A stretch of 64,000 nt of DNA, from IMG/VR virus record IMGVR_UViG_3300009514_000888, positions 122,299 through 186,298 of that record. One strand, written 5' to 3'. How positions within the stretch are numbered: position 1 is the stretch's first letter; every line of letters starts with the position of its first letter. The notes beneath the pieces were generated by a model. The model searched no databases. It saw only the letters and a list, made by a program, of their open reading frames with translations, and was not told the DNA's origin. The translations under genes and the position numbers were made by a program. Shown here one piece after another: positions 1-64,000 of the stretch. Origin of the DNA: a virus.

Positions 1-636
1 CTCGAAGCACAGCCCTACCTGACGCAAGTATCTCATTACAATAAGCTCACTGGATATGCACAGTTCGGAGATCAGCCCTTTTTCGACTTTGATAGATATA
101 GGGAACATCCCAGGGTCAAGAGGTTTTATGACCATCCAGAAGAGGCGATTAATATCGCCAAAGCCCATCTGGAAACCGCCAATGTTCATTTTGATCTTGC
201 CCAACAATGGCTATTCAATATAGAACCAAAAACGGAGGCAGATATCGTCATCCATAAGACCGAGAAGTATCGTAACTTTGAAGGCAAGAACTATATTCCT
301 ACAATCGACTGGACGCTTTTGGAGGCATATGCAGATCGGTGCGTGTTTGTGGGATATGAGAAGGAACAAAAGATATTTAATCGCTGGTATACAGACCGCA
401 AATTCGAAGTCCCCTGGTATGGCTGCCAAGATATCTACGAAATGGCTCAGATCATTGCTGGGTCGAAGATGTTCATAGGCAATCAGTCCATCGGATTTGC
501 TGCGGCAGAAGGCATGAAACACCCCAGGGTTCAGGAAACATGCCTGCGCATACCGAACTGTTTGCCGCATGGCAAGGACGGCCATACAGAATTGAGCATA
601 GAGCTGATTGAGAAATACCTGAATAGGACAGCATGA
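1..636 (+). CDS. GT-B/GT9-like glycosyltransferase, 5' partial
   Basis: Frame 1 is open from base 1 (LEAQPYLTQV...) through the 319..636 ORF; C-terminal MAQIIAGSKMFIGNQSIGFAAAEG resembles the GT9 (heptosyltransferase-like) nucleotide-binding segment. Confidence 0.6.
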   Translation, partial: LEAQPYLTQVSHYNKLTGYAQFGDQPFFDFDRYREHPRVKRFYDHPEEAINIAKAHLETANVHFDLAQQWLFNIEPKTEADIVIHKTEKYRNFEGKNYIPTIDWTLLEAYADRCVFVGYEKEQKIFNRWYTDRKFEVPWYGCQDIYEMAQIIAGSKMFIGNQSIGFAAAEGMKHPRVQETCLRIPNCLPHGKDGHTELSIELIEKYLNRTA

Positions 637-1238
637 TGCATAACTTGGAAATCCAGAAATTAGCGCAAGATACGGTTGTCGGTAGATATGATATCTACAA
701 ACTCGTTAAAAAGATTGGGCTTAATAACAATGTTGCCGAGATAGGGGTGGCAAAAGGTAAGAACTTCGCCAAAATCGTCTGGTATGCTCTGCCCAAGTAT
801 GCGGTGGGCATTGATCTTTGGGAATGGACAGAAGACAATTTGTGGTGGACACAGGAGTTCTTTGATAGTTACCGACGTAAAATAATAGAAGCAAAACCCG
901 CTCTGGAAGAAAAGACCGGGGCTAAAATTGACTACATCAAGGGCGACTGCCACAAAATAGTTCATCAGTTTGAGGATGAATTTTTTGACTTCATATACAT
1001 CGACTGCGACCATAGATACGAATATGTCAAAAGAGACCTGAATGACTGGTGGCCCAAGCTGCGATCTGGAGGGATCATGGCAGGGCATGACTATCTAGAG
1101 AAATCTTGCTGGAAAGGCGCGTGGACCTACGGAGTCGTGACTGCCGTGAATGAGTTTGTGAAGGAACATGAACTTTCCTGGATGCATTTAACTACTAAAG
1201 ATAGCGATCCTAGCTATATGTTCCTGAAACCAGAGTGA
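633..1238 (+). CDS. Class I SAM-dependent methyltransferase (Methyltransf_24-like)
   Basis: VAEIGVAKG motif I, FDFIYIDCDHRYE, WWPKLRSGGIMAGHDY. Confidence 0.85.
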   Translation: MMHNLEIQKLAQDTVVGRYDIYKLVKKIGLNNNVAEIGVAKGKNFAKIVWYALPKYAVGIDLWEWTEDNLWWTQEFFDSYRRKIIEAKPALEEKTGAKIDYIKGDCHKIVHQFEDEFFDFIYIDCDHRYEYVKRDLNDWWPKLRSGGIMAGHDYLEKSCWKGAWTYGVVTAVNEFVKEHELSWMHLTTKDSDPSYMFLKPE

Positions 1239-1259
1239 GTGTAAGCAACGGGGGACAAA

Positions 1260-1946
1260 CTGAGCCATATCGAATTTGCCAATGCATTTCGCGGTTTCAG
1301 CCCCCAACAACTGACGAGCGTTAAGCACCTTTCTAACTTCATTTGCTGCCAGGCTGGTTTGGCTCTCAATCGAAAATCAATCGATATGGACCTTTCCCGT
1401 TTGATAGAATGTTGGGGCGGCGTCAAATGCAAACAGTATCCCGATGAGCTGGCTCGATTACTGGTTTATATCTATAATAATAAGCATAAAATCAATAGTT
1501 ACCTGGAAGTGGGTATAGAAAATGGGGGAACGTTTTTTGTGATAGACAGCTTCTTGAGAGCAGTCAATCCGAAATACGAAGGGGGGTACGGGGTGGATGT
1601 GCGATATCGTCGCGGTAGCCTCAATATGATCTTGGACTACCAGATGGCGTACCCTGATAGCTATATCAAGATAGTTCATGCCAACCATGTTTATGAATGG
1701 ACGGTTCCCAAAACCTTTGACCTGTGTTTCATCGATGCAGAACATCGCTATCATGCAGTTCTTAGGGATTACACGAAGTATAAGCCGTTCTCAAAGATTA
1801 TGGCTTTTCATGATATTGCGTTGCCTATGCGAGAGAAGTCCACATCGGATTTGTGGGAAGAAATTAAAACAGAAGATTCGATAGAAATATTGAATGAGGA
1901 CGATAGATTTCGTACTCCGGTTGGAATCGGAATACTGAATCCGTGA
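1260..1946 (+). CDS. Class I SAM-dependent methyltransferase; start uncertain (CTG 1260 or TTG 1359)
   Basis: YLEVGIENGG, FDLCFIDAEHRY, MAFHDI; frame open from 1245 with GGGGA just upstream of CTG at 1260. Confidence 0.7.
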   Translation: MSHIEFANAFRGFSPQQLTSVKHLSNFICCQAGLALNRKSIDMDLSRLIECWGGVKCKQYPDELARLLVYIYNNKHKINSYLEVGIENGGTFFVIDSFLRAVNPKYEGGYGVDVRYRRGSLNMILDYQMAYPDSYIKIVHANHVYEWTVPKTFDLCFIDAEHRYHAVLRDYTKYKPFSKIMAFHDIALPMREKSTSDLWEEIKTEDSIEILNEDDRFRTPVGIGILNP

Positions 1947-2686
1947 AACCAACTCAGAAATCAGCAGATATCTACCGATGCTTCGGCACTGGACTCGGGG
2001 ACATTCTTATATCCCTGAGTGTTTATTATGACTACAGTCAGAACCGCAATGAGATCATGCAACTGTCCTCGTGGTATCCTAAATATATAGGAGAATCCTG
2101 CAAACATCGAAACTGCGATCTTAAATTAAGAGAGATATATTCCCTGATTGAGGAACCCGAAAATGCCGCGATAGAAATTGTCAAAGATGAGCCTACGCAT
2201 ATATTTAATGTGGATGCCATGAATCAAACAGTATTTAAGAGATCAAGGCCATGTTGGCTACCGCGTCAGCATAAGACTATATCTTATCAATTGAATGCAT
2301 CCTCCAAAAGGCGTTACAATATGTCTCAGGAACAGCAGGGAGAGTTGATATGCCAATGGCAGAAAAAGGGATATGAGACAGTGGGTTTGGGGACTCGCTT
2401 CTCTTTGGAAGAATGCGCCAAAGTGTTGTCGAACAGCTGGGCGTTCGTGGGGGCTGCAAGCGGAATGGCTTCTCTCGGATATGCGGTAGGCGTGCCTGTG
2501 TTTTTGATACGTAATGGATTCTGCTTGGACTATCTGATGCAAATCAGGCATGGTCATTTTGTTATTGTCGAGGATTATGACGAGTTCCAGGAGACGTTCC
2601 CTCAATATCTGTCGCATGGCATGGATTATTATAGACAGATCGCTTGTAATGCAGACCTCCTGAATCATCCGATACAAACGTCATGA
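1943..2686 (+). CDS. Putative GT-B/GT9-like glycosyltransferase
   Basis: N-terminal GTGLGDIL and C-terminal SLEECAKVLSNSWAFVGAASGMASLGYAVGVP, typical of GT9-like folds. Confidence 0.55.
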   Translation: MKPTQKSADIYRCFGTGLGDILISLSVYYDYSQNRNEIMQLSSWYPKYIGESCKHRNCDLKLREIYSLIEEPENAAIEIVKDEPTHIFNVDAMNQTVFKRSRPCWLPRQHKTISYQLNASSKRRYNMSQEQQGELICQWQKKGYETVGLGTRFSLEECAKVLSNSWAFVGAASGMASLGYAVGVPVFLIRNGFCLDYLMQIRHGHFVIVEDYDEFQETFPQYLSHGMDYYRQIACNADLLNHPIQTS

Positions 2687-3450
2687 ATGTATTAGTCACA
2701 GGCCATAGCGGATTCATTGGCTCGCATCTCTATCGTGCTCTTTTGGCTGACGGCCATTATGTTCTGGGATGGGATGATGTCCGGAACCCATCTTCCATTA
2801 CCATGGCCGTCAGTCAAGCAGATGTCATTTTTCATCTAGGCGCTCGCGTCAATACATTGGAACAGGATGTGAATCGCATTATGTTCGAGAACTACCATAT
2901 CACAAAGATATTGGTTGATGAGGCAGAAGAAAATGGAGCAAAGGTTGTATTCGCATCTTCTGCGGCGACTTATGGCGTCTCTGGTACACCAGCAAATGCC
3001 TATGGATGGAGCAAGTATTGCGCCGAGCAATATGGACTTAAAGCTTGCTCTAGATTTGTCTCCTTACGCTACTTTAATGTCTATGGACCAGGAGAGGGGC
3101 ACAAGGGAGCGATGGCGTCCGTGGCTACACAGTCGATGCAGAAAGGAAGTTTTACACTATTTCCAGGTAAACCATCAAGAGATTTCGTTTATGTCTTTGA
3201 TGTTGTTAACGCGAATATCTGGGCCATGGAAAATATTGAGCATGGAGTTTATGAGGTAGGTAGCGGAGAATCCAGAACCTTTGAGGATGTATTAAGCATA
3301 TTGGGCATTCCATTCGATTACCATGACGCATCATCCATTCCGCATGGATATCAGATGCGAACACAGTCTGATTGCGAACAATGGATGCCTGGCTGGAGTC
3401 CACGCTATACGCTAGAATCCGGGTTAACGGAATATTTGAGATCGCCATGA
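2683..3450 (+). CDS. rfaD: NAD-dependent epimerase, ADP-L-glycero-D-manno-heptose 6-epimerase (RfaD/HldD)-like
   Basis: TGHSGFIG Rossmann motif, ASSAATYG, YGWSK (YxxxK), and LRYFNVYGPGEGHKGAMASV matching the RfaD signature. Confidence 0.65.
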   Translation: MNVLVTGHSGFIGSHLYRALLADGHYVLGWDDVRNPSSITMAVSQADVIFHLGARVNTLEQDVNRIMFENYHITKILVDEAEENGAKVVFASSAATYGVSGTPANAYGWSKYCAEQYGLKACSRFVSLRYFNVYGPGEGHKGAMASVATQSMQKGSFTLFPGKPSRDFVYVFDVVNANIWAMENIEHGVYEVGSGESRTFEDVLSILGIPFDYHDASSIPHGYQMRTQSDCEQWMPGWSPRYTLESGLTEYLRSP

Positions 3451-4427
3451 AGAAAGCATATATCATTGGTATATCTGGCCAGGACGGTTCTTTGATGGCG
3501 GATTTGTTGCATCGAAAGGGATACCAGGTGGCGGGCTGCTGCCGAAACGAACGGCAAGCATCCGCCTATCTCAGGGAGAAAGCAAAAGTCAATCGCGTTG
3601 ACTTGAATGTAGATATCAAGAAGATTGTCCATCGTATCGCTAGATTCTGTCCAAACGAAATATATAATTTTGCAGGCGTAACAGAACTGGAAACATCTCT
3701 TGATTTCCCTGCCTATACTATGAACGTGAATGCATATGTCATTATGGAGATGATCGAAAAACTGAGCCAGATTCGCAAGTTTGCAAGACACCAGATCAAG
3801 TTCTGCTTGGCGAATTCATGCGAAATCTTTGGCGATCATCCAGGCCCGCATACAGAATTGACGCCGCTTAGCCCGCAATCCCCCTATGCTACAGCCAAGG
3901 CTGCTCTTTTGGAGATGTCCAGGCATTACCGTCGAAAGGGTATCTTTGTCTCAAATGCTATTTTACACAATCACGAGAGTCATGCGAGGCGAAAGGGGGT
4001 CGTTTACAGGGTTACATCTTTTGCCAAAGCATACGCAGCTTCGTCGCTGACGCTTGGCAATGTCGATACCTGCCGAGACTGGGGGTATGCCCAGGATTAC
4101 ATGGATGCCATGTGGCTCATGAACCAGCATGACTCGCCTGACGACTATGTTGTTGCTTCTGGGGTATCTCATTCTGTGAAAGAGATGTGTACGATGGCGA
4201 TGAGGCAGAGGGATATAGAGATGGAATGGACGACCGGCCCGGAGATATTCGCTTATGACAAGCGAACTGGATATAAGGTGTTTGTGTCTGATCCTGGAAG
4301 AAGTCGTCCAGGAGATGTCCCCAAACGATCTGGGAACATCTCTAAGATTCAGAAGGCTCTTGGCTGGAGCCCGCAGATGACATTTTCTGAGATGATTCGA
4401 CTTCTTGTTTCTGGCGAATCTGCTTGA
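3447..4427 (+). CDS. gmd: GDP-mannose 4,6-dehydratase (divergent)
   Basis: MKKAYIIGISGQDGS, SPYATAK, NAILHNHES, LGNVDTCRDWGYAQDYMDAMWLMNQHDSPDDYVVASG; ATG at 3447 overlaps the upstream TGA. Confidence 0.85.
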   Translation: MKKAYIIGISGQDGSLMADLLHRKGYQVAGCCRNERQASAYLREKAKVNRVDLNVDIKKIVHRIARFCPNEIYNFAGVTELETSLDFPAYTMNVNAYVIMEMIEKLSQIRKFARHQIKFCLANSCEIFGDHPGPHTELTPLSPQSPYATAKAALLEMSRHYRRKGIFVSNAILHNHESHARRKGVVYRVTSFAKAYAASSLTLGNVDTCRDWGYAQDYMDAMWLMNQHDSPDDYVVASGVSHSVKEMCTMAMRQRDIEMEWTTGPEIFAYDKRTGYKVFVSDPGRSRPGDVPKRSGNISKIQKALGWSPQMTFSEMIRLLVSGESA

Positions 4428-5406
4428 TTTTTTCAGCATCGCTGCCGTAATGGAGAGCGCCGCCCTCGTAATACCATTCGATTGCCCGAATCACATCCAT
4501 CGGCTTGATCATGTCCATGCACCTTGGGATGACCAGGTGATCGCTGATTCTCACGGGATATTCGCATAAATCCTTGCGATCTTTAATATCTCCATCGCCT
4601 ATTTTTTGGCAGCGAGATTTCCAGCATCCGCCATTATCGCAACAGTCCAGGCTACCATTGACCGCCAAGAAGCGATGGTGCGGATAGGCTTCCCACTGGG
4701 GCGGTTCACGGCCTCCGGCTATGACAACTGCGGCCCTGTTTAGGGGGCGGCCTGGCTTGACTGGAGCGGCTGCGGCAAGATGCATCGCCCATGTTACAGG
4801 GCATAACACTCCCACTGAATGATAAACCAGGCGAATGAATTGACGGGCATCTGTTTTTCCAATGAGATCAATCACATTTTCTAGCTTAGGATGAAAATGA
4901 CCCTTTTCTCCAACCTGTACAAATGTGATTCTGCCTAAAAAATGGTTGACGACCTGCTGATACCAGTCAGGATTCCACCACTTGCTTGAGAAGTCCGTCT
5001 TCCCACCAGCCACAATGACCCAAAAGTCGTCGTCCAAACCTATCTCCTGAACTTGACTCATCCAAGACTGCTCGTCCTCCGAAAGATGAATATCTCCCTT
5101 GAAATCGATGGGCCTGAGGTTGATCTCTAATTGATCAGATAGAAAGTCATGAAAACCATGAATGAAGTGATAAGGAGAGGTATTGCTGCGATGGATCAAT
5201 GGATATTCGCATTCCAGGACTTTAACATCATCATCATTTTCGTCTAACTTTATAATGTAGGGATTGTTTTCCCAGATTGCGTCGCATGGTGTGCGAACAT
5301 CCGTTTGATATTGGTCAGGAAATGTAATATGCAGATCGCGTATCGCCGCTGTCAGCATCATGATGTCGCCAGGACAAAGGCTGTGCTTAAGAACATATTT
5401 CTTCAT
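4342..5406 (-). CDS. GT9-family (heptosyltransferase-like) glycosyltransferase
   Basis: CPGDIMMLTAAIRDLH, VVNHF...FVQVGEKGH, DLIGKTDARQFIRLVYHSVGVLCPVTWAMHLAAA; Cys-rich C-terminus. Confidence 0.7.
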   Translation of the reverse strand: MKKYVLKHSLCPGDIMMLTAAIRDLHITFPDQYQTDVRTPCDAIWENNPYIIKLDENDDDVKVLECEYPLIHRSNTSPYHFIHGFHDFLSDQLEINLRPIDFKGDIHLSEDEQSWMSQVQEIGLDDDFWVIVAGGKTDFSSKWWNPDWYQQVVNHFLGRITFVQVGEKGHFHPKLENVIDLIGKTDARQFIRLVYHSVGVLCPVTWAMHLAAAAPVKPGRPLNRAAVVIAGGREPPQWEAYPHHRFLAVNGSLDCCDNGGCWKSRCQKIGDGDIKDRKDLCEYPVRISDHLVIPRCMDMIKPMDVIRAIEWYYEGGALHYGSDAEKIKQIRQKQEVESSQKMSSAGSSQEPSES

Positions 5407-5887: not shown

Positions 5888-6613
5888 ATGCCCTATGACT
5901 TTGGCGATCTACCCTACCAGAAATTCGTAATTGTTAGCGATCATCGATCTGGATCATATATGGTTCGATCCGCGCTGGAGTCCCATCCGCATATCCTGTG
6001 TCATAACGAAGTCTTTCATGAAACCAGACAAGCCGCGTATCGCACAATGGCAATGGAAGAGGTTCTTAAGAATATGGTTTGGCAGCATATGGAACTGCCT
6101 ATGCAGGCGGTGGGCTTCCTTTTGATGAGATATCAATGCCAAATCAGCAGCCCATTTGCTCCCGTTTGGGATATCCTGGCCCATATGACTGGCCTTAAAG
6201 TCATTATGTTATCCCGCAAAAATATCGTGGATCGAGCCGTGTCCCTTGCCATCGCACAAAAATTCAACTCTTACAACGATCAGCACCGACTGGCAATGAG
6301 AGACGATCCCGTTATTGAACTGTCAGTAGATGATTTCTTGAAATCAGTCAATGCCTATACGAAACATATGGTGTATGCTAATCTGAAACTGGGCAGACAG
6401 AAACTTCAACGCTATTGGTATGAAGATATCCTCGATGATCCTATTAAGACTTATCGCAGCATGCAGCAATTCCTTGGCGTCAAGGAAGTCCTGGACCTGG
6501 CAGCCACAACCCGACGAGTTGAAAAACGATCCCTCCAAGACGTTGTGATCAATTATGCAGAACTAAAGGAGGCAAGCGAACAGACCATCTTTGAAGATCA
6601 TTTCAAGGCATAA
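5888..6613 (+). CDS. Sulfotransferase, Stf0-like
   Basis: 5'-PSB loop DHRSGSYMV, ESHPHILCHNEVF, and LSRKNIVDRAVSLAIA 3'-PB motif. Confidence 0.75.
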   Translation: MPYDFGDLPYQKFVIVSDHRSGSYMVRSALESHPHILCHNEVFHETRQAAYRTMAMEEVLKNMVWQHMELPMQAVGFLLMRYQCQISSPFAPVWDILAHMTGLKVIMLSRKNIVDRAVSLAIAQKFNSYNDQHRLAMRDDPVIELSVDDFLKSVNAYTKHMVYANLKLGRQKLQRYWYEDILDDPIKTYRSMQQFLGVKEVLDLAATTRRVEKRSLQDVVINYAELKEASEQTIFEDHFKA

Positions 6614-7263
6614 CCATAGCGATTGGACATCTCTCGAATAGCCTCCCCTAATTCAGGGTTCGTGCTCTTCATCTTCCCCCATGTAAGAACGGCATAGTCC
6701 TGACGTTTGGTATGAAAAAACTCTTTTGGGTCAGGATGAGACTGATAATCTAATCCCAGCCTACGTAATACCTCATGACATATATGTGGTAACTCTGTAA
6801 ATGACTCTACTCTGTACGTGTATTCCGCAATCTCGTCGGCTCTCTTGTGTAGATGGTACCAATATCTCATGGTCCTGAATAACTTGATGGGACAAAAGTA
6901 TCCCGACTCTAGCCCACCGCAAGCCCGGTGAGCGGGTATGCCAACCTCCCTGCATTGGTCACATAACTGAGGGAACTGATAGGATAGTCTTAAATGCTTC
7001 TCCACTTTGACCAGCAAGGCATCTCCTTTATGGTAGACACAGGCAGAAGCAATAGAGTTTAGAGGATGACGAACCTGATGAAGGATGCAATCGAATTGAT
7101 CAGGGTCATGGAAAATGAAACTGTAGCCCACCACCCCGCCCTTGCTCTTGAAATTTTCATGCTCGACATCTGCCGAACAGGCACGGAGATATTTGGTGAT
7201 GAATCCTGTGCCGCTGCGGGTTGGTGAGGCAATCATGATCCTATTGGGGATAGCCGTATTCAT
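6598..7263 (-). CDS. Sulfotransferase-like P-loop protein with Cys-rich insert
   Basis: IASPTRSGTGF (5'-PSB-like), HQVRHPLNSIAS (3'-PB-like), YTYRVE; CxxC-x10-C-x8-C insert. Confidence 0.6.
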   Translation of the reverse strand: MNTAIPNRIMIASPTRSGTGFITKYLRACSADVEHENFKSKGGVVGYSFIFHDPDQFDCILHQVRHPLNSIASACVYHKGDALLVKVEKHLRLSYQFPQLCDQCREVGIPAHRACGGLESGYFCPIKLFRTMRYWYHLHKRADEIAEYTYRVESFTELPHICHEVLRRLGLDYQSHPDPKEFFHTKRQDYAVLTWGKMKSTNPELGEAIREMSNRYGYALK

Positions 7264-7903
7264 GACATTTGTCCCAAATTTTGCTCGCCAATTCCTCGTC
7301 TAACTCGCGCAGCAAATCCCAGGTTAACATCGTATATCGTTCGGGATTCTCTCCTCCCCATAAATGGTCAGGTGATGGCTGCTGTTCTGGAATCCCCAGC
7401 CTTCGATACATCTCTTTGCGAGTCCCTTCATCATTGTGGAAATCTTCTACGTGATACCGCCAACTTGATATCTTTTCTGCCGCCAGATTCATGTAATACC
7501 AGTATCGCATGGTCCGCAGGACGCGAATATGGCACAAATATCTTGCGCCGGACCTGTGTCCGCAGCCGTCGTTGACGCCATGACCATGATCCAGACATTG
7601 GTCACAAATCTTCGGGTATTGATACTTGATGGGGAAAAACCCTTCAGGGTCTTCAAAGAAATATACGGGATAGCCGCTACAGGACGACATGACTTTTAAG
7701 GGATCGCGAACTTGGTGGAAAATAATGTCGAAATCCCCAGGATTCATTTTAATGAAAGTCCAGCCAGTTATCCCATAATATCCTGGCTTGCGATTCTCGT
7801 GACGAACCGCCACGCGAGGGCGCAGATGATTTAAGGCTTTGAAGATGTACTTGCTGCCCGATCTCATTGTGCCGCAGATCAACACTTGTTGCTTAAATTT
7901 CAT
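7241..7903 (-). CDS. Sulfotransferase-like P-loop protein with Cys-rich insert (paralogue of 6598..7263)
   Basis: ICGTMRSGSKY, HQVRDPLKVMSS, RTMRYWY shared with neighbour; CxxC-x10-C-x9-C; likely start ATG at 7903. Confidence 0.6.
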   Translation of the reverse strand: MKFKQQVLICGTMRSGSKYIFKALNHLRPRVAVRHENRKPGYYGITGWTFIKMNPGDFDIIFHQVRDPLKVMSSCSGYPVYFFEDPEGFFPIKYQYPKICDQCLDHGHGVNDGCGHRSGARYLCHIRVLRTMRYWYYMNLAAEKISSWRYHVEDFHNDEGTRKEMYRRLGIPEQQPSPDHLWGGENPERYTMLTWDLLRELDEELASKIWDKCHEYGYPQ

Positions 7904-7908
7904 AGTGT

Positions 7909-8085
7909 GCGGGCAGGAAACCCCTACCCTCGTGGTAGGGGAGGAATGCCGCCTCCTTAACATTAAGCATAACTTTGAAGCCAGTCTCGCTACAAGTTTG
8001 ACTGGTAGGGCGCATTCAACCGTCCATACGTCTCAACCTTCGGGTTAGGGACAATCCCCCTCCCCTTGCGTGAGGGGTAGTTGAA
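7909..8085. mobile_element. Non-autonomous IS200/IS605-family mini-element (IscB/TnpB-type ends, omega-RNA-like)
   Basis: Subterminal hairpins CCCCTACC-CTCGT-GGTAGGGG (7921-7941) and CCCCT...GAGGGG near 8058-8077; minus strand begins TTCAACTACCCC and ends GGCGGCATTCCTCCCC...GGGGTTTCCTGCCCGC; internal hairpins; no transposase or nuclease ORF; ends uncertain by a few nt. Confidence 0.65.
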
Positions 8086-8535: not shown

Positions 8536-11500
8536 ATGGCCATTGTCACTGATCCCGATGATCTGAATCGCTTTGCAGTAGCGGTTAATCCGGGAATAGA
8601 ACGTATATCAATTCGAGGTCTTGGTACGGCTCGCGTTGCGAAGCAAACAGACGGAGCTGTGACTTTCGGCTCAGGCGACACATGGGACGCTTTTACTGAA
8701 TTTACGGGCACTGCGGACTTCGCCTCTGTTGTGGCTGGTGATATACTGACTATCGTGAAGGGCAATAATATCGGGCATTATATCGTATCGTCCGCCCCAA
8801 CTACTTCTCGAATCATTATCGACTCAGCCATTTCAACTTTTAATGGCTTTGACAATCTGGTGACCAATGGTAATTTTGCCTCTGGCGCAAACTGGACTGT
8901 TGATACAAACTGGGCCATCGGTAGCGGCACGCTGAACTCTACTGCCGCCACAACCGCGCAGAGGGCTTACCAGACTTTGACCGATAACCCCCTGGCTAAC
9001 TCCACGGTCTATGAAACAACCTTTGAAATTACCGCCTATACCGGAGGAACAGTCAATATAGACTTGGGAGGCGCTGGCGGCGCAGGTGGTGGCACGGACG
9101 GTGCTGGACGCACTGGCACTGGCGTGTTCACTGAAAGACTTACCTCTCCTGGATCGACTGGGCAACAGGTGACGTTCGAAAATAGCGTTGCTTCAACTCT
9201 CAGTATTGACCATGTTCATGTTTCTGAGTTGGTGACTTACCGCGTTGACCAGGCAACCGGCGAAGCCGCCGGTCCCTCTGGCGGCACGGTCGGCGATGGC
9301 GTTACTCTCCAGGCGGTCTATTCGTTTCTTAAAGAAGAATGGCGAACCTTCGATACGTCCCTGTTCGGAACAACAGGTGCAGATGAAGCTCCTGACTTGA
9401 TCAAGTTTACGTTCCCAATCGAATCTATCACGCGCGAACAGTTCGAAATCGGTGGACCTACCCACTCGAATTGGGACTTCGCAGATAATACGACACGAAA
9501 CCTGATCCGAACCGGAGGATGGTCATCCATTAATGTCAATAACGTCATTGTGGATGTCTACCCTGGCGTTATTACCCTCGGTAGTCTCGACTCCGATACT
9601 GTTGTTTACTTCATCCAAGCCAATAACTTCACGACGACGCCGACTGACTTCGTTTTGACAGGTGCCGTCAACCAGTCAGTTAACGCCTTGACGGTTACTG
9701 GCGGATTCGCCACAACCAATGTTAGCACCACAAATAAAGTTCCCACAGGACAGGTGACTGGCAATATCGTCTTTACAGCCACCGACACCATCGACGGCGG
9801 CGCTTCTGTCAACTTCGTAACCCTGGGTTATGCCGTAGGTGATAAGGTTCAAATCGTTGCCGCAGAAGATGCTGGTAATATCGGAATATTTACCATTGTG
9901 ACCATTGTCGATAATGCTGGCACCAACGACAGAATGACCGTATCTGGCGTAAGCATTACTTCCAATACCGACGATGACACTGCCCTTCTGAGTCCTGTTA
10001 CCGATAACCGCGACTTCCTGAAACTTTTCGCGAGGAAGAAGGCCAGAACGTATGTTGACGCTGACCTGACGGATATCGGTGTTACGCAGCTCGAATCAAT
10101 CGTTAACCGATTCCCGCTATCTCACGTTACTGACCCTGCGATTACGCTCGATGACGGGCAACTCGCCGGTGACCCCAGTAACTCCGTTTTCGCGTCCGTT
10201 GAAGTCGTCGATTCGTCAGGCACGAACGGCGATATGACTGCTTCAGTTCCCGCTGACGGAACATTCGCTTTTACTGCCGCTGCCCAGAACTTTAATACAG
10301 ACCTGAACGTCGGCGATACGGTTTCGGTCGAAACTGAAGGCACTGGTGGTTCAACCGCAGATATTGGCTTCTATGAAATTTTGTCTGTTGACGGCGCAAC
10401 CAGCTTGACATGCTTTAACGAACCGCTGGTCGGGTCGGTGACTGATCCGTCCTCTGCTGATGTTACTTTCTCAACCTATACAAGATATCGCAAACAACAG
10501 GCAACAGATGGCGTTCTTTCAGACCCAACGGGAGCAGATAATGAAGGACGATTGACCTCCGCTGGCGGAACCTTTACCACAGATGGCGGCATCGGCGACC
10601 GCATTGTTGTCGCTGGCGACATGGTCGTCATGACAGATGGATTTCTGATTGGTCCGTTTACTGGAGCTAACGGGTTAATTTTCTCGGGTGCCACAATCGA
10701 GGAAATTGGTAATAACGATTTTACCGCAGATGGGCTGATCGTCGGCGACCGTATTACAATCGCTTCTGCCGAAGATGCTGCAAACAATGGAACTTATGAT
10801 ATCATAGCTATCGCAACCACCTCCTTCGACATCCTGACTGTTCGAAATACGGATGGCACAGCGGTATCGTTTACCGGCAATACCGATGATGAAACCGCGA
10901 CCATTCGAAGCGATAACTGGGAAGGCGTTTACAAGGTCGCAACAGGCGGCGTCGCCGCTACCACGCTGGACGTTGAACTGAATGATCCAGATGACCACTT
11001 CCCGACTTCTGGCACAGCCACGTCGATTACGTTCCACGTTTTGCGACCGACCATGATTCTGCAATATCGAAGTAAATTTGCCGCTCCAAGAGGACCAACC
11101 CTTAGCTTAGCCTATTCAGGCGCAACGATTCGAAGAACGGCGGACATCCCGTTTGCTTGGTCGGAAGATAACTATGTTGTTGGCGGAACAGTTGTGACGG
11201 CTAGCTCCGAAGATGGCGGCGTTAATAATGGTACATTTATTATTACTGCCCTGTCGAACGGCGGACAACCTGATGATACCGTTACCTTGATTAACACAGA
11301 CGGTACGACTCCATCGTTTACTGCAAATACTGACGATGATAGCGTTACCATTACTGGTAACAGCGGTCACGTTCGAGCCATGAACGGCGTCAACTATTCG
11401 TTCAACTGGCGTTTGTTTGGTAATAGCGGAACGCTTGCTCAATGCTTCCAATGGATTCAGAGACAGCTGCGTCGCGGTCGAGCCTCGGAAACTCTGGCTC

Positions 11501-12066
11501 AGTCAGACATCGATACCAGCCAGTTGCAGTTCAGGGGCGATATCTCTGACCTTCTGATGACGTTCTCCTCGCCTACAGGCACGACAATCAATATGTTCAT
11601 TGATGACCTTGCCGCTGCTGACTTTAACAACGTTACCAAGTCTGACATCACTGGCACAGGCCGTAACTTTGCGTTCATCGCTGGTATTACCATCAACTTG
11701 AACACGAATATTACGGACGGCGCAACTAACAAAATCGTTGTATTCTTTACGGACCCAGATGGAAATGCCACGACGCCTGTTGGGGGTAATGAATTCGGAA
11801 CAGTTGGCGCAATTATCGTCCAAGACGATACCCCGGCCAATATGGAGGCAAGCGACCAGGCAACCACACCTCTGACTTTCAACTTCGACTATGATAACAA
11901 TGTTCAGGGCGGACGCGATTCCACCGAATCTGCAACGCCAATTACTATCGTTGCTATTACGACAGATACAGGGCAGTATGTCCAGACAACAGGCAATATC
12001 CTGCGACAATCATCTAATATTTTCTCACTAGTAGCTGCGCTGGAGCGCAACTATCAGAACAATTGA
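8536..12066 (+). CDS. Large virion structural/fibre-like protein (1176 aa)
   Basis: T/G/D/S-rich beta-type composition; MAIVTDPDDLN start and GVTLQAVYSFLKEEW...LIRTGGW block that I recall from uncultured-phage structural proteins; CBM-like NLVTNGNF segment; repeated xGDxxxIxxAEDxxNNGxF/YxI modules. Confidence 0.7.
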   Translation: MAIVTDPDDLNRFAVAVNPGIERISIRGLGTARVAKQTDGAVTFGSGDTWDAFTEFTGTADFASVVAGDILTIVKGNNIGHYIVSSAPTTSRIIIDSAISTFNGFDNLVTNGNFASGANWTVDTNWAIGSGTLNSTAATTAQRAYQTLTDNPLANSTVYETTFEITAYTGGTVNIDLGGAGGAGGGTDGAGRTGTGVFTERLTSPGSTGQQVTFENSVASTLSIDHVHVSELVTYRVDQATGEAAGPSGGTVGDGVTLQAVYSFLKEEWRTFDTSLFGTTGADEAPDLIKFTFPIESITREQFEIGGPTHSNWDFADNTTRNLIRTGGWSSINVNNVIVDVYPGVITLGSLDSDTVVYFIQANNFTTTPTDFVLTGAVNQSVNALTVTGGFATTNVSTTNKVPTGQVTGNIVFTATDTIDGGASVNFVTLGYAVGDKVQIVAAEDAGNIGIFTIVTIVDNAGTNDRMTVSGVSITSNTDDDTALLSPVTDNRDFLKLFARKKARTYVDADLTDIGVTQLESIVNRFPLSHVTDPAITLDDGQLAGDPSNSVFASVEVVDSSGTNGDMTASVPADGTFAFTAAAQNFNTDLNVGDTVSVETEGTGGSTADIGFYEILSVDGATSLTCFNEPLVGSVTDPSSADVTFSTYTRYRKQQATDGVLSDPTGADNEGRLTSAGGTFTTDGGIGDRIVVAGDMVVMTDGFLIGPFTGANGLIFSGATIEEIGNNDFTADGLIVGDRITIASAEDAANNGTYDIIAIATTSFDILTVRNTDGTAVSFTGNTDDETATIRSDNWEGVYKVATGGVAATTLDVELNDPDDHFPTSGTATSITFHVLRPTMILQYRSKFAAPRGPTLSLAYSGATIRRTADIPFAWSEDNYVVGGTVVTASSEDGGVNNGTFIITALSNGGQPDDTVTLINTDGTTPSFTANTDDDSVTITGNSGHVRAMNGVNYSFNWRLFGNSGTLAQCFQWIQRQLRRGRASETLAQSDIDTSQLQFRGDISDLLMTFSSPTGTTINMFIDDLAAADFNNVTKSDITGTGRNFAFIAGITINLNTNITDGATNKIVVFFTDPDGNATTPVGGNEFGTVGAIIVQDDTPANMEASDQATTPLTFNFDYDNNVQGGRDSTESATPITIVAITTDTGQYVQTTGNILRQSSNIFSLVAALERNYQNN

Positions 12067-12114: not shown

Positions 12115-12157
12115 AAAAAAGAACTCCGATACATGCGTATTGGAGTTCTTTTTTTTT
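12115..12157 (+). terminator. Intrinsic (probably bidirectional) terminator
   Basis: AAAAAAGAACTCC-GATAC-ATGC-GTATT-GGAGTTCTTTTTTTTT: long stem followed by a T-run and preceded by an A-run. Confidence 0.85.
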
Positions 12158-12224
12158 CCTTAGGCAGCATCGTGGACTACGTTGAAGATCACAAAATCTC
12201 TTGAAAGCATGTGAAGGCCTTAGC

Positions 12225-13484
12225 ATGACAGACGTTATTCAGTCAGAAATCAAAAAGCTAGAGACAGCGATAGAGTCCCTGGAGACTGACTGGGAGGCCC
12301 ATAGCAATCTGGGGGTTTTGCGGTATATGACTGGCGACCACAATGCCGCCTTGAAGCATTTTCTTCGCGCGACAGAGATAAACCCCCAGAGTGCCTTCGT
12401 GTGGCATAATCTGGCGAAATGGCACGATGGACGGAACGAGATGAACGAAGCCATCACGTGCTATTCTAAGGCTCTGGAGGCGGACCCTGCGTACCATTCT
12501 TCCCGTTTCAATCTGGCTTGCGATTATCTCAAGGCTGGGCGACTCAAGAAGGGTTGGGAGTGTTACGAGTCACGTTGGGCATTGTTCCCTGATGCTCATA
12601 CGATTCGTAATTTATTCAAGCATATTCCCGAATGGGCCAATCAGGACTTGCATGGCAAAACTATTGTGTTGTATTGTGAGCAGGGCATCGGGGACATGAT
12701 CATGTATGTTCGGTTTGCGAAGCATCTAAAAGAGATGGGTGCCACAGTTGTCGTTGATATTAAGGGCATTAATGATGTATCCCCCAAGGGCAGTATGAAG
12801 CATTTGTTGGAGGCGATGGAATTTATCGACCATGTGACGCCATTTGAAGATGATGACGAGGGAACGATTGGATGTCATTACCAGCAATCGGTTTGCAGTT
12901 TGCCTTATATTTTGGGGTTAGAAAAGATTGATTGGGATGGGGCTTACATAGAGCCTGTTGAGCTTATTGAGTTGTATGTGGATATTATGGAAGCTCAACA
13001 TAAGGACTTTTACAATATTGGCATTGTTTGGTCTGGCAATATGACATGTGGCAAGAACCCAGATCGTTCGGCATTGTTGAGGTTCTTTAATCCTGTTGGG
13101 GCATTGCCGAATGTGAGGATGCACAGCTTTCAGGATATGTTCCAGTATCCGAAGGATCACCCATTTCGCTCTGATATGAAGGTGGGAACTCATTTTCCGT
13201 TGGTTCATTGGGATAGTTTGATTGCTACGCTTAATGATACTGCCAATTTAATGCATAAGATGGATGCGATAGTAACTGTTGATACAGCATTGGCTAATTT
13301 GGCTGGGGCGATGGATCATCCTAATGCTTATGTAGCCCTGGGATATAACGCGGATTGGCGATGGGAGACGGGGGATAGCACTCAGTGGTATCCTAATTTG
13401 AAGCTGTATAGGCAGGATGCGGATAAGGATTGGACCCCTGTTTTTGAGAGGATTGCTGCGGATTTAGGGGCTAGTATGACTTAA
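12225..13484 (+). CDS. TPR-repeat GT9-like glycosyltransferase
   Basis: N-terminal TPRs (AHSNLGVLRY...; VWHNLAKW...A ITCYSKALEADP), then LYCEQGIGDMIMYVRF, IGIVWSGN, MDAIVTVDTALANLAGAM, DWRW; probable start ATG 12225. Confidence 0.85.
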   Translation: MTDVIQSEIKKLETAIESLETDWEAHSNLGVLRYMTGDHNAALKHFLRATEINPQSAFVWHNLAKWHDGRNEMNEAITCYSKALEADPAYHSSRFNLACDYLKAGRLKKGWECYESRWALFPDAHTIRNLFKHIPEWANQDLHGKTIVLYCEQGIGDMIMYVRFAKHLKEMGATVVVDIKGINDVSPKGSMKHLLEAMEFIDHVTPFEDDDEGTIGCHYQQSVCSLPYILGLEKIDWDGAYIEPVELIELYVDIMEAQHKDFYNIGIVWSGNMTCGKNPDRSALLRFFNPVGALPNVRMHSFQDMFQYPKDHPFRSDMKVGTHFPLVHWDSLIATLNDTANLMHKMDAIVTVDTALANLAGAMDHPNAYVALGYNADWRWETGDSTQWYPNLKLYRQDADKDWTPVFERIAADLGASMT

Positions 13485-17131: not shown

Positions 17132-17134
17132 TCA

Positions 17135-57917: not shown

Positions 57918-60900
57918 ATGGCCGGATCAACGCCATTCTATTAGCTAGGGGCTATCTTTCTTCGATTTCGGAGATGAGCTAGATGCCGCTCTCAATGTCC
58001 AGAGGGAAGTAGATCGATTCCTGGTCATTGATAAGCAGATATTTGGTATCTACAACATCTTCGGAAACGGCGTTATTAGCGGCTGGTCTATTTCAGATGG
58101 CGGTTTCAGCGCAGAAACCGGCATATCTATTACTATTGCCCCAGGAATAGGCATCATTCGCTTCCTGGCGGCAGAGTCGGAGTTTCCCTTCCGATTGACG
58201 GGCCTGCAACCAAACGCCACACTGAACGTCTACGCGGTCCTACAGGGGTCTACTGCCCAGGACCGTCGCGTAGACTTCACCGTCAGCGCCGTAGAGCTAA
58301 CAACGGATTCCGTGATTCGTATTGGGCAGGTGGTAACTGGCGCACAATCAGTAGCTCTTATAGATAATGAAATTAGGGACGAAATTGGCTTTAAGGAGAT
58401 CATTAAGGAAGAGATTGATAAGCATCGTCATAGGGGCACCCCCAGCAAGATCGATTTGAGGGACGAAACCAAGAACCAGTTGCCGGGGGCAAAAATTACA
58501 GATATTGATGCTTCCAAGGTCGTTTCTGGCGTCTTTGACATCGAGCAGATACCTATTTTGGATCACGATGATTTGGAATTCAACGGGCTCCTGGGGCATA
58601 TCGCCCTGGATTCATTTGTCAAGACGCTGAGCGAAAGCAACAAGCAATTGCTTGGCGAGATATCGACTGTTAACCTCTTGAAGCAACATCTATTTCTTAA
58701 AAGGAAGTTCCCTAATGTAGATCAGCACTTCATCAATGAGATTCTGTTGATTCCAGGCATCACGACAAACTCATTCATTGATTTTGAGAACTCAACAGCT
58801 CACATTGATTTGGTTAATCGTTGCATCAGCGGTATCCCCCCTAAAACCGGAGAGTTTGTATCCGTTGTCTGGGATGACCAAACTGCGTTGTTCCATGCAT
58901 TCAGCAAGACCAATGTTACTGTTGCCAATGGCAAAGTGTCTTTGAGTCGAGATACGAACGCGACAGATACGATTGAGAACTTCGAAGGCATTGCCCAGGC
59001 TGGCCAGAAAGTGCCTGGATTTGTCAAAACGACGGAGATTGTACTGGATAATGCCAAGGTGGTTGCCGAGGACGCAGACAGTCTCAAGACGGAAGGATTT
59101 TTTAGCGGCAAATTCAATTCTCAGCAGGACTTTAGGACGCTCTTTACCAAGACCTTCGATTCTGCGAGGGACTGGACTTCCTTTGACCGGCTGGAGGTAG
59201 CAGTGAAAACCTTGGCTCCCAGCCACGGATCGGTTCATGCTTATTTTGTCAATGGCACAGGCGACAGCGCTATCCAGTCGCCCAAGTTTTTACTTTTGTC
59301 GGAAAATGAAATCACTGATGATCCCGATGAGGAACTCGATGATTTCGAAGTCAAGGTCTTTGATATCTCTAATGCAGATAGAGAACAGGTGACTTCATTT
59401 GTCATTGAAACAGATGACTTGACGAGCGGTTTTGAATTCTTCATTGATAACGCTAATGTCAAGAACGTCTCCTTGTTCAGCCCGCAGGGCAGCATTAGGC
59501 TCAGGTATTCAGGCGGGTCGAATCTCACATTCCATTCGGTGTTCTTCGATGCGGACGTTTTTACTAATACGGATGTGCGAGTTCGCGTCCGCGTCGCTAA
59601 TTCCCCTGCCGGTTTATCTAGAGCTGCCTTTACGAGAGCCTTGCCATCGGGAACGATCTTTGCTCTGGATGGGACAGATGCAGAGGTTGAAGTGACTTTG
59701 CTGACTAATGAATTGACGATTACGCCTATTTTGGATTCGGTAGAGCTACGACTCCTGACGGCGACCGATGACAATGGCTTCAATATCACAGCGGCATCGG
59801 AATGGTCCAGAGGCTCCCTGAGCAATGTGACGATTGATAGCAATCCATCCCAGGATACGGCAGACCTGATAGTTACCACGCCTATCAATGTAGGCGGGAT
59901 TTACTATGCACATAAGGACAGCGTAAGCGAACTCGACAATGCCGGAGTCGGTGTTTTCGGCTTCAATGGCGCTAGGCTTCCTATCTCACCGATTCAGGCA
60001 TTGAGATGGGCAACTCGACCAGAGAAAAGATTTGATCGAGCTGTTTCTGCCATTCGTCGCAATGACAAGACTTATTTGGTTGCGGACTTGGAGAACAACC
60101 GGGTAGTTCACATGAGCAGTTCGGGAGACCTGATTAGAGGCTACGGTTCCGTGGACCTGGACGAAGATACCTTCTTCCCCATGACATCGGTGTATAGACC
60201 TGCGGATGGCATACTGTCATCCGTGTTTAGCCAGAAGGTGGAGAAAGATGATATTGACATTGAAAGGATATCGATCTTTATTGGGGCTACGGAGGTGCAG
60301 CTTAACGAGAATGATATCATTTTGACAGGCAACAAGAGCGGCAACATCGTGGACATTCAGTTGTCGGATGCCAAGATTGCTCAGCTAACAGGTTTGACCA
60401 AGAATGTCTTTGTAAATTTCAGAGTCGGCTCGTTGCCTTCCAAAATTGACTTATCAGATGATAATGCTGCGGCCCTGATGGGGCTGAGGGGCATTCAGGT
60501 GTTCATAGGAGCGTTCGAATATATAGACGGTATCAATCATCCTGTATTCGTTAGTATCCTGGATAATGGTAACTGGATCGTTTGCAACTCCAAGATTGTT
60601 CAGTCTGCAACTGGCTCAGGCATCAATGTGTCTTCCCTGTTTGAATTTGATCCTGATAGCCCCAGCACGGCGGTATTCAGTTCGGATGAAGTAACGTTCT
60701 CTGATTTCTCTTTGGGGTCTGTGTTCGAGATTACAGATGATCGCTTGGCGGTAGCTGGCGTATTCCCCACGGCTTCTGCTGTCAGCCAGGCAACCAGCGC
60801 AGATGGCGAGGAAGATGGGGGTATTGGAGAGAGGAAGATTTTTATCACTATCACGAATGACTCCGGTTCTCCCATCGATGTTGAATCGGTGACGCTGGCT

Positions 60901-61425
60901 TCTGAGGATGGCGCTTTTGGTATCAAGAGGAATGATACGAACGAATCTATTGTGGCTAGTGGCACAGAGGTGAGCCATCCTTCGACGGGGCGTTATGAGT
61001 TCGCTTTTAAGCCAGAAGAAGGGGTCACGTATACGGCTTCCTGGAGGGTGGTTGAAGTTACGGGTTCTCAGCCCACGTTCCAGGTTGAGACTGTGGGCCC
61101 ATTTTTCGCAGATGATACATCCAGCTTTAGCGATAGGGCAGCAATTGCTCTAAAGGGACATAGGGGCGTGGTTGTGGTTTTGGAAAAGAGCTCTGGAAAT
61201 GTTATTACTAGATATACGTCTCCCGATAATCTCTTCGCTTCGGACGTAGATTTGGATGCCAATGGCAACCTATTGATTGCTGAGTCCAATTTCAGAGAAA
61301 ATGGCGGGCGAGTGGTCAAGATTGATGACTTTGGCAACGTCATTTTCCAGTTCAGCAATGGCTTATTTGGCATTGTCAATGATGCCAAGGCGAGGTCTAA
61401 CGGGAACATGGTCCTAAGTCTCTAA
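57918..61425 (+). CDS. Tail fibre/baseplate-associated protein (1166 aa if repaired) with CBM-like, Ig-like and NHL-propeller segments; frame broken by a 7-nt insertion at 57942-57948
   Basis: GGAGGT SD and ATG 57918 (MAGSTPFY*); main frame open from 57949 (GLSFFDFGDELD...) with no ATG/GTG/TTG until 58195; NHL-like TYLVADLENNRVV and DLDANGNLLIAE. Confidence 0.7.
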
Positions 61426-63184: not shown

Positions 63185-63195
63185 GGATATGAAGA

Positions 63196-63744
63196 ATGGC
63201 AATTTGGAAAAATGTTGCATCGCAGAAAATCGCAGTTTTTGCCTGGGATGCTTCCGCCCAATCTCCTAAAACTGGTGATGCTGCCAACATCACGGGCGAA
63301 ATCAGCAAGGACGGCGGGACTTCGGCAGCTACCAATGATGTCAACCCTACTGAATTGGAAGCCACCGATCATCCAGGCATCTATATATTCGATATGACTC
63401 AATCGGAAACAAATGCTAACTTGATAGTATTGACTGCCAATTCGTCTACAGCAAATATAGAATTTGATTCTGTTATCATTTATACGGAGATTAAGCCTTA
63501 TACAGAGGCAACAGTTAGTGATGCCGGGGCAACATCTACAGATTTTGATACCGATCTGACGGAAGCTAGCGATAATCATTATAATGGAACGGTCATGGTG
63601 TTTATAACTGGCAACTTAGCTGGGCAAGCGAGGTCCATTGGGACTTATACAGGGGCTTCCAAGAATTGCAATTTCACTGGCAATTTATGGTCAGAAGCCC
63701 CAGCAAACGGGGATGCATTTGTTCTTGTTGGACGGATCGAATAG
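63196..63744 (+). CDS. Virion structural protein (182 aa)
   Basis: ATNDVNPTELEATDHPGIYIFDMTQSETNA; DTDLTEASDNHYNG...FITGNLAGQAR...EAPANGDAF. Confidence 0.6.
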   Translation: MAIWKNVASQKIAVFAWDASAQSPKTGDAANITGEISKDGGTSAATNDVNPTELEATDHPGIYIFDMTQSETNANLIVLTANSSTANIEFDSVIIYTEIKPYTEATVSDAGATSTDFDTDLTEASDNHYNGTVMVFITGNLAGQARSIGTYTGASKNCNFTGNLWSEAPANGDAFVLVGRIE

Positions 63745-63760
63745 TAGATGTCCTGATCTC

Positions 63761-63814
63761 ATGGAAGCACCACTTAATGGAGACGCATTGGTGATAGCAG
63801 GAAGAATTACATAA
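63761..63814 (+). pseudogene. Degenerate duplicate of the 3' end of the preceding gene
   Basis: MEAPLNGDALVIAGRIT* versus SEAPANGDAFVLVGRIE*. Confidence 0.55.
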
Positions 63815-63834
63815 TCTTATAGCGCAATGAACCA

Positions 63835-64000
63835 ATGGCATTTGTACAATGGTATCAATTCTTCCTGGATTCGGCTACAGCATCCAGTAGTAGCTCATCG
63901 ATCAGCAGCTCTCGATCATCATCGAGCAGCAGCCGCTCATCGAGCAGTAGCTCTGTAAGCAGCTCCCGATCATCGAGCAGCTCTCGCTCATCGAGCAGCA
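63835..64000 (+). CDS. Poly-serine protein, 3' partial
   Basis: MAFVQWYQFFLDSATA then 33 Ser in the last 39 complete codons; runs off the window. Confidence 0.7.
   Translation, partial: MAFVQWYQFFLDSATASSSSSSISSSRSSSSSSRSSSSSSVSSSRSSSSSRSSSS
63883..64000 (+). repeat. Imperfect tandem repeat (TCATCGAGCAG units) encoding Ser-rich SSSRSSSSS units
   Basis: Direct reading of the sequence. Confidence 0.85.

Follow-up and report, generated by a model that had tools for sequence, protein, structure and literature searches.

The Locus

The window analyzed here is a stretch of 64,000 nucleotides that forms the final 64 kb of one linear, 186,298-bp IMG/VR virus record (IMGVR_UViG_3300009514_000888). 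CheckV estimated this record to be about 39% complete, which implies a genome of about 480 kb, and the source is an uncultured, siphovirus-like huge phage. No terminal repeat was found on the contig, the end of which falls inside a Ser/Arg-rich repeat. Negative results for the contig cover its 186 kb, 61% of the genome lying outside the record. The window carries a real, phage-borne glycan toolkit that is partly interleaved with tail genes, and from 8.5 kb onward almost every gene lies on the plus strand. Two glycosyltransferase genes are embedded among the genes for virion parts: a GT4 gene in the tail operon, and a gene called here TPR-GT9, coupled to genes for fibre-like proteins.

An earlier note, made from the DNA alone, had read the window as a self-contained system for glycosylation and sulfation of the virion. 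Thirty open reading frames (ORFs) of the window, large or of unknown function, were compared with PHROG and gave almost no matches; because PHROG and Pfam recognize few of the large ORFs, the structural labels in that note were mostly guesses.

A GT4 Glycosyltransferase in the Tail Operon

The GT4 gene lies between the following neighbours:

40493 to 41422, plus strand: conserved 309-amino-acid (aa) protein of the tail/neck module (p309), found in all relatives at 41-68% identity
41430 to 42593, plus strand: GT4 glycosyltransferase (Pfam, 27.9 bits versus a cut-off of 27)
42674 to 44012, plus strand: 123-aa protein and tail tube protein (tube: Phage_tube_2, 5e-15)

Relatives were gathered via the tail tube protein, which yielded 74 representatives at E<=1e-30. 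The first set comprised 12 related loci including three complete genomes (461, 499 and 548 kb), and the later set 28 loci including this phage. Scans for relatives with single proteins returned one hit for TPR-GT9 and none for the tube protein or the product of the gene at 14447, and alignments were used instead. In the related loci the tail module runs in the order Zn-ribbon protein, actin-like protein, 238-aa protein, small protein, 309-aa protein, GT4 where present, 123-aa protein and tube, and continues after the tube gene with two chaperones, the tape measure and large distal proteins.

The GT4 gene stands in the identical slot in 20 of the 27 informative related loci (21 of 28 when this phage is counted), and the loci without it form one group. 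On the trees of the tube, actin-like and 309-aa proteins its presence requires 1-2 changes versus a mean of 4.5 for shuffled labels, and values as low as those observed came up in 0-6 of 500 shuffles. The same groupings appear in the GT4 tree as in the module trees. Across loci the tube protein is 37-71% and GT4 31-43% identical. Since the slot is conserved, the trees are congruent and the sequences have diverged, these comparisons argue for an ancient presence of GT4 in the tail operon with vertical inheritance, and against a recent insertion. No terminator-like site lies between GT4 and the tube gene, which is followed by a 12-bp hairpin at 44043-44070.

The earlier note had placed GT4 between the tail terminator and the tube. 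The tail-operon slot is borne out, but the upstream 309-aa protein is not identifiable as a terminator: a PDB profile search with it gave nothing significant (best E 0.04). Its position makes the 123-aa protein the better candidate for the tail terminator. The capsid gene lies outside the window.

Unlike the slot-stable GT4, HNH endonuclease genes occur at varied points of the tail module in relatives (L094:4873-5787, L094:11198-12103 and L097:3623-4345), and in the related locus L092 the tube gene is tandemly duplicated. The actin-like protein is a volactin-type actin-fold product (38390-39463, Pfam 2e-62) that is found in every related tail/neck module at 57-73% identity; its gene always follows the Zn-ribbon gene, and its conservation exceeds that of the tube protein.

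The TPR-GT9 Gene and Its Fibre-Like Neighbours

The second glycosyltransferase gene and its surroundings are as follows:

8536 to 12066, plus strand: 1176-aa Thr/Gly-rich repeat protein, fibre-like, in its own transcription unit (composition, internal repeats, Gly linker)
12201 to 13484, plus strand: TPR-GT9, with a TPR domain (residues 9-130; Pfam TPR) and a GT9-fold GT-B glycosyltransferase domain (residues 147-427; AlphaFold)
13484 to 14026, plus strand: small Sulfotransfer_2-like enzyme (ST2; ESM Atlas score 0.97, TM 0.81 to Sulfotransfer_2 clusters)
14030 to 14446, plus strand: 138-aa protein between ST2 and a fibre-like gene, with no Pfam or PHROG match
14447 to 19396, plus strand: two fibre-/tailspike-like proteins of 894 and 753 aa (starts 14447 and 17135) that share a 56%-identical module
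19493 to 21115, plus strand: virion structural protein domain, phrog_1645 (PHROG 8.5e-81)

The AlphaFold model of TPR-GT9 has a pLDDT (predicted local distance difference test) of 89.6. For its C-terminal 280 residues the best structure matches, over about 250 residues, were 3tov (Z 17.8), WaaF (1psw, 16.9), WaaC (2h1f, 15.6) and TibC (4rap, 15.6), while the Pfam GT9 score of 18.2 bits lies under the cut-off of 22. Foldseek searches with the whole chain gave SPY/OGT as best matches at TM-scores of about 0.3, and PDB profile matches to OGT/SPY were confined to the TPR part. The modelled fold firmly identifies the product as a TPR protein with a GT9-fold enzyme domain closest to heptosyltransferases.

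A perfect hairpin with an 18-bp stem between an A-run and a T-run (12115-12154), bidirectional and terminator-like, separates the 1176-aa gene from TPR-GT9. From TPR-GT9 on, the genes are tightly packed into an operon: the ST2 start overlaps the TPR-GT9 stop, and the genes of the 138-aa, 894-aa and 753-aa proteins follow after 3, 0 and 3 nt, respectively.

Ser and Thr together make up about 20% of the large fibre-like proteins and Gly about 11%, while Cys is nearly absent; internal repeats and, by eye, beta-helix-like motifs are present. Their composition is that of ordinary Thr/Gly-rich fibres and is not mucin-like, which does not support the earlier proposal of Ser/Thr-rich fibres as acceptors. 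The 1176-aa protein (8536) and a 430-aa protein (22336) share modules of about 100 aa with a conserved distal tail protein (58195-61425), and the product of 19493-21115 is 34-36% identical to the "virion structural protein" of cyanophages and HMO-2011. For the 894-aa and 753-aa proteins there were no homologues among phage records, nor any for the 894-aa protein in the 12 relatives; PDB sequence searches matched the 8536 product to the Gly linkers of single-chain antibody fragments (scFv) alone and the 14447 product to nothing. Because of their composition, their repeats, the shared tail modules and the neighbouring virion domain, the large proteins are plausibly fibres or tailspikes.

In at least nine viral loci (L014-L030; for example L017:11251-12054 and L024:11220-12035) a family of 256-287-aa proteins is coupled downstream of a TPR-GT9 relative; it starts with a conserved YRISD-type motif and may be another transferase.

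Sugar-Nucleotide Enzymes

Four genes of the window encode enzymes of sugar-nucleotide synthesis:

2683 to 3450, plus strand: short HldD/RfaD-like short-chain dehydrogenase/reductase (SDR), ADP-heptose 6-epimerase-like (PDB 1eq2, 4e-31)
3372 to 4427, plus strand: Gmd, GDP-mannose 4,6-dehydratase (Pfam GDP_Man_Dehyd, 2e-72; PDB 2z1m, 6e-54)
26900 to 27874, plus strand: Fcl, GDP-L-fucose synthase (PDB 7ll6, 9e-87; Escherichia coli 1e6u, 5e-83)
29363 to 31282, plus strand: WbpP/WbgU-like 4-epimerase of UDP-N-acetylhexosamine (UDP-HexNAc) with a LAGLIDADG intein (PDB 1sb8, 1e-59)

These matches make the identities of Gmd, Fcl, the HldD-like enzyme and the WbpP-like epimerase firm as sequence assignments, and all four had been named correctly in the earlier note. 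The HldD-like SDR keeps the GxxGxxG, catalytic S and YxxxK motifs. With Gmd and Fcl both present, 22 kb apart, the de novo pathway to GDP-L-fucose is complete; the predicted enzymes would allow the phage to make GDP-L-fucose and a UDP-HexNAc 4-epimer from host precursors and probably, via the HldD-like enzyme, ADP-L,D-heptose as well. The starting points of these pathways, GDP-mannose, UDP-HexNAc and ADP-heptose, are host-derived.

An Fcl orthologue (53%) stands at the matching position of the closest relative. The epimerase orthologue of that relative (L122:17298-18248) has also kept its position and is 60% identical and intein-free, which points to a recent intein invasion of the epimerase gene studied here. 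Genes for sugar-nucleotide SDRs occur in 7 of the 12 relatives, all three complete genomes among them; one relative has Gmd and Fcl, another Gmd and a third several Fcl-like genes. As SDR genes recur across the relatives, glycan supply is a trait of the clade.

Sulfotransferase Candidates

Besides ST2, three sulfotransferase candidates lie in the window:

5888 to 6613, plus strand: sulfotransferase of Sulfotransfer_1/3 type (PF00685, 25.7 bits versus a cut-off of 22; PF13469, 26.6 versus 27)
6598 to 7263, minus strand: sulfotransferase-like paralogue of 7241-7963 (motif only)
7241 to 7963, minus strand: sulfotransferase-like (motif only)

By eye, all four candidates contain the loop motifs for 5'-phosphosulfate binding (5'-PSB) and 3'-phosphate binding (3'-PB). 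Of the four sulfotransferase-like genes counted in the earlier note, the assignment is supported for 5888 by PF00685 and for 13484 (ST2) by ESM Atlas, but is motif-only for 6598 and 7241. The best PDB match of 5888-6613 is the lipopolysaccharide (LPS) sulfotransferase NodH (9vki), a weak one at E 0.022. ST2 scores only 15 bits in Pfam and has a single known homologue, on a 600-bp contig; the 3'-phosphate-binding motif F..RN......S is invariant in ST2 and five other phage proteins, six Sulfotransfer_2-like proteins in all. The product of 6598-7263 is 34% identical to that of 7241-7963 and matched nothing in Pfam or PDB, and ESM Atlas returned mostly unnamed viral clusters for it. For 7241-7963 there is one outside homologue, and the AlphaFold model of its family, built from a 3-row alignment, has a pLDDT of 39. 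Profile comparison by hhalign of the 7241 family gave E 0.011 versus 5888 and E 0.22 versus the 13484 family, with the loop motifs alone aligned. A PDB profile search with the two paralogues found nothing.

In the complete 499-kb relative a Sulfotransfer_2 gene (L100:12414-12986, 34 bits) lies between tail chaperone and tape measure, a placement peculiar to that genome; the 190-207-aa ORFs in the same slot of other relatives are membrane-like and unrelated to ST2. No description of sulfated phage glycoproteins was found in the literature searched.

The Accessory Island

The genes for supply and tailoring are found in two places. One is an accessory island that covers 1-8 kb and extends for about 11 kb beyond the window start (genome 111-122 kb); the other is the stretch at 26.9-31.3 kb. 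The remaining members of this set are:

1 to 636, plus strand: possible GT9-like enzyme, C-terminal part of a 261-aa ORF (genome 122149-122934; motif by eye, no Pfam match)
633 to 1238, plus strand: S-adenosylmethionine (SAM) methyltransferase, Methyltransf_24 (Pfam 7e-17, 62.6 bits)
1359 to 1946, plus strand: probable methyltransferase, borderline for Methyltransf_24 (26.2 bits versus a cut-off of 26.3)
1943 to 2686, plus strand: weak GT9-like candidate (PF01075, E 0.03, 14.1 bits versus a cut-off of 22)
4342 to 5406, minus strand: weak GT9-like candidate (PF01075, E 0.003, 17.2 bits versus a cut-off of 22)
27871 to 28629, plus strand: GT8 glycosyltransferase (GT-A, DxD; Pfam 4e-6, 26.9 bits versus a cut-off of 24.3)

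About six glycosyltransferases and two SAM methyltransferases had been counted in the window. GT4, GT8 and TPR-GT9 hold up, while the three other GT9-like genes are sub-threshold or motif-only: hhalign comparison of the TPR-GT9 family with them gave weak matches only, among them E 0.17 for 1-636 and E 0.018 for 1943-2686, the latter spanning the donor-binding motif. Likewise, the methyltransferase at 633-1238 is secure and the one at 1359-1946, a weak paralogue of it, borderline.

Just upstream of the window the contig carries two GT4, one GT2 and one GT9-like gene, three methyltransferase domains and a subtilase, and far upstream an Stf0-type gene and another Sulfotransfer_2-type gene. The transferases, methyltransferases and sulfotransferases of the island have no orthology between relatives, and in the closest relative a DNA methylase takes the place of the GT8. 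Across the clade the set of tailoring genes is fluid, and GT4 is the sole transferase stably linked to the tail.

The subtilase gene (genome 114001-114813) lies among the upstream glycosyltransferase genes. Before the upstream glycan genes, at genome 104696-108997, stand genes for a haem-dependent N-demethylase-like protein, a MotA/ExbB-like membrane protein and a ThiF-family enzyme.

The Poly-Ser ORF and Export Machinery

The window ends in one further feature to which a role had been ascribed:

63835 to 64000, plus strand: start of a Ser/Arg-rich ORF, 55 residues before the contig end

The ORF that the earlier note proposed as a poly-Ser acceptor exists, with 62% Ser over its 55 visible residues, but it is a stub for which two metagenome scans with DNA patterns of the ORF start found no relative, and a Leu/Asp/Glu-rich frame on the minus strand is likewise open through the repeat. 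Joining the contig end to its own start gives an immediate stop in the poly-Ser frame, which is meaningless for a fragment. At the matching position the closest relative has a 1074-aa protein with 28% Ser+Thr and a lectin-like domain. Nothing ties the poly-Ser stub to the glycan enzymes.

Directly before the stub, at 63745-63815, lies a short remnant, out of frame, in which the C-terminus of the gene before it (63196-63744) is repeated and which resembles a cassette-exchange scar at the fibre end of the module. The sole other Ser-rich ORF of the contig is found at genome 9804-11417 (L123:5804-7417), where a double DUF350 protein with eight transmembrane segments is followed by a membrane-anchored protein whose Ser/Arg/Thr-rich stretch has 55% Ser+Thr over 40 residues.

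The claim that no Wzx/Wzy/ABC exporter is present was upheld: no flippase, polymerase, ABC-2 permease, ABC exporter or priming transferase was found in the 186 kb. No multi-pass membrane protein besides the tape measure was found in the window, and those in the 186 kb are the DUF350 protein, the MotA/ExbB-like protein, a glutamate-receptor-like channel and unassigned ones. In the channel gene (genome 13332-14522, L123:9332-10522) an SBP_bac_3 domain (4e-29) is split by an Ion_trans_2 pore (1e-13), and Lig_chan matches at 2e-9. The absence of an exporter fits a cytoplasmic protein acceptor and is compatible with the use of host export machinery too.

Discussion

The analysis demonstrates the identities and folds of the enzymes, their gene order and the conservation of GT4 throughout the clade. 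The best reading of this arrangement, which we hold tentatively, is that the tail-embedded enzymes glycosylate tail or fibre proteins of the virion. GT4 and TPR-GT9 would be produced late, alongside the tail parts, and would O-glycosylate tail or fibre proteins while these are still unassembled in the cytoplasm. Docking of the acceptor protein may fall to the TPR domain, as in FlmG, OGT and SPY. ST2 may then sulfate a sugar or a hydroxyl with host 3'-phosphoadenosine 5'-phosphosulfate (PAPS), and the island would be the source of donors and further decoration. The virion protein as acceptor, the sugars used, the transfer of sulfate and any role of the poly-Ser product belong to this conjecture, and a fucose- or heptose-containing, sulfated and methylated glycan on virions, as pictured in the earlier note, is something we infer only.

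Several observations weigh against this reading. No acceptor protein was identified, the poly-Ser ORF is a 55-residue stub, and the Ser/Thr-rich termini of the tube protein (with its variable C-termini) or of the 309-aa protein do not track the presence of GT4. The fibre identity of the products of 8536, 14447 and 17135 is drawn from composition, repeats and one shared module, not from homology. Two of the four sulfotransferase candidates, 6598 and 7241, are motif-only. The claimed placement of TPR-GT9 and a sulfotransferase between fibre genes is correct in that the two are coupled to fibre-like genes, but the pairing does not recur: the cassette and those fibre-like neighbours that were searched for (14447 and 19493) are missing in 12 of 12 relatives, including the three complete genomes, and no ST2-like ORF lay at a distance of up to 10 kb from any of 81 further viral TPR-GT9 genes (regular expression and Sulfotransfer_2 hidden Markov model). 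The TPR-GT9/ST2 cassette is private to this phage. The TPR-GT9 family as such is found on at least 563 viral contigs and is very common in bacteria (at least 595 genomes from many phyla). Self-containment, finally, has to be given up. ATP sulfurylase and adenosine 5'-phosphosulfate (APS) kinase were absent from the contig and APS kinase from the 12 relatives, the three complete ones included; any sulfation would rely on host PAPS, since genes for its synthesis were not found, and the sugar pathways need host precursors.

The strongest competitor, unlikely on balance though far from negligible, is remodelling of the host envelope. Most or all of the enzymes would then act on intermediates of LPS, capsule or exopolysaccharide at the cytoplasmic face of a Gram-negative or cyanobacterial host, to which they would add fucose or heptose as well as methyl and sulfate groups; flippases and ligases of the host would complete the process. 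The purpose would probably be to block superinfection, to keep progeny from sticking to debris, or to change grazing or immunity. Most of the enzymes lie in the mixed-orientation island beside mobile elements of insertion-sequence type, a setting typical of host-directed auxiliary genes, and its accessory look is reinforced by transferases that are non-orthologous between relatives and by the DNA methylase in the GT8 slot of the closest relative. GT9, HldD, Gmd/Fcl and WbpP are canonical LPS or O-antigen enzymes, the weak NodH match of 5888-6613 is to an LPS-modifying enzyme, and an Stf0-type carbohydrate sulfotransferase is encoded elsewhere in the genome. The missing exporter is weak evidence for a virion acceptor because transferases at the cytoplasmic face could borrow host flippases. 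Remodelling of the envelope leaves unexplained, however, why the GT4 slot is constant across a clade with such divergent tube proteins, why TPR-GT9 and ST2 are coupled to fibre-like genes, and why TPR-GT9 carries a protein-docking domain; a lipid-carrier priming enzyme was also lacking on the contig. With the host surface as target, the locus would amount to an auxiliary island of conventional kind, if a large one.

Glycosylation of virion proteins can be elaborated into a fuller scenario, which we consider distinctly unlikely as a whole. A clade of phages of about 350-550 kb would have kept the tail-operon GT4 since its origin, coating tube or neck proteins from virus-made GDP-fucose, heptose or HexNAc donors, and this member would have added a TPR-guided GT9 enzyme and a sulfotransferase that place a sulfated sugar on the fibres, the first sulfated glycoprotein of a tailed phage.

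A non-virion acceptor is improbable to a higher degree. TPR-GT9 and other transferases might modify host flagellin, pilin or S-layer protein, much as FlmG does, or else a secondary metabolite or phage proteins outside the virion, with the adjacency to fibre genes being incidental; enzymes of the TPR plus GT-B type with known function do modify flagellins or nucleocytoplasmic proteins, and a widespread bacterial family with a cassette private to one phage would suit such a role. Against it stands the layout of the operon, which follows a strong terminator and couples TPR-GT9 tightly to two fibre-like genes, and no genes for flagellin, pilin or peptide synthesis were noted near the cassette. DNA hypermodification, in which sugars would be put on hydroxymethylated phage bases for restriction evasion, is very improbable. 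Hypermodification of DNA with various glycans is a known activity of phage glycosyltransferases (bioRxiv 10.1101/2023.12.21.572611) and this phage carries DNA methylase genes, but the contig (39% of the genome) yielded neither a thymidylate-synthase-type hydroxymethylase nor a Tet/JBP dioxygenase, the latter in a search that lacked a positive control. A GT9-fold enzyme with a TPR domain, sulfotransferases and a pathway to GDP-fucose are also foreign to known DNA systems.

If GT4 does modify tail proteins, virion glycosylation would extend past the few mycobacteriophage cases to an ancient trait of an environmental huge-phage clade with self-made donors. The GT4 slot offers a simple constellation of one enzyme and three candidate substrates in its neighbourhood, the 309-aa, 123-aa and tube proteins. 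A sulfated fibre glycan, if true, would be a new chemistry for tailed phages, with effects on adsorption, on adherence to host polysaccharides or mucus, and on shielding from defences or grazers.

Comparison With Known Systems

Glycosylation of capsid and tail tube in the mycobacteriophages Che8, Corndog and Myrna (Freeman et al., 2023, Cell Host Microbe 31:1216, as summarized in PMC12619734) is a close precedent. As far as that summary describes these phages, the present one resembles them in having soluble phage glycosyltransferases among or beside virion genes, without an exporter and with the tube protein among the proposed acceptors. It differs from the systems summarized there in that it belongs to a huge-phage lineage, in that it is known from genes alone, in that no matching Ser/Thr-rich C-terminal acceptor tail was found, and in having its own sugar-nucleotide pathway as well as genes for sulfotransferases and methyltransferases.

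FlmG of Caulobacter crescentus is a cytoplasmic flagellin O-glycosyltransferase whose TPR domain binds the acceptor (PMC7591256). TPR-GT9 shares with FlmG and OGT/SPINDLY the fusion of an N-terminal TPR array to a C-terminal GT-B domain, but its catalytic domain is nearest to GT9 heptosyltransferases and not to GT41. In its fold it is like WaaC/WaaF and TibC/Aah, and the protein heptosyltransferase TibC matches it as well as the LPS heptosyltransferases do; the HldD-like epimerase of the genome could supply ADP-L,D-heptose. TPR-GT9 is set apart from these enzymes by its sub-cut-off Pfam GT9 score (18 bits versus 22) and its N-terminal TPR extension, and from TibC/Aah also by its neighbours, which are fibre-like and contain no autotransporter domain in Pfam.

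The hydroxylase-sulfotransferase operons of bacteria with tail-collar or collagen-like substrates, for which sulfation is predicted (Iyer et al., 2010, PMC2938197), likewise link a sulfotransferase genomically to a fibre-type protein, and both cases are predictions. Those operons include 2-oxoglutarate dioxygenases and often PAPS synthetase, whereas a PAPS-synthesis gene was not found here. The machinery of chloroviruses and mimiviruses (PMC9614988) is similar in combining a viral pathway of GDP-fucose type with several soluble transferases and methyltransferases, cellular export not being needed; these are, however, giant viruses of eukaryotes, and their glycans on capsid or fibrils are proven. 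Phage enzymes that glycosylate virions are already known from mycobacteriophages, and viral fucose pathways from giant viruses; what the window adds is the conserved GT4 slot in a clade of huge phages together with a concrete set of candidate substrates.

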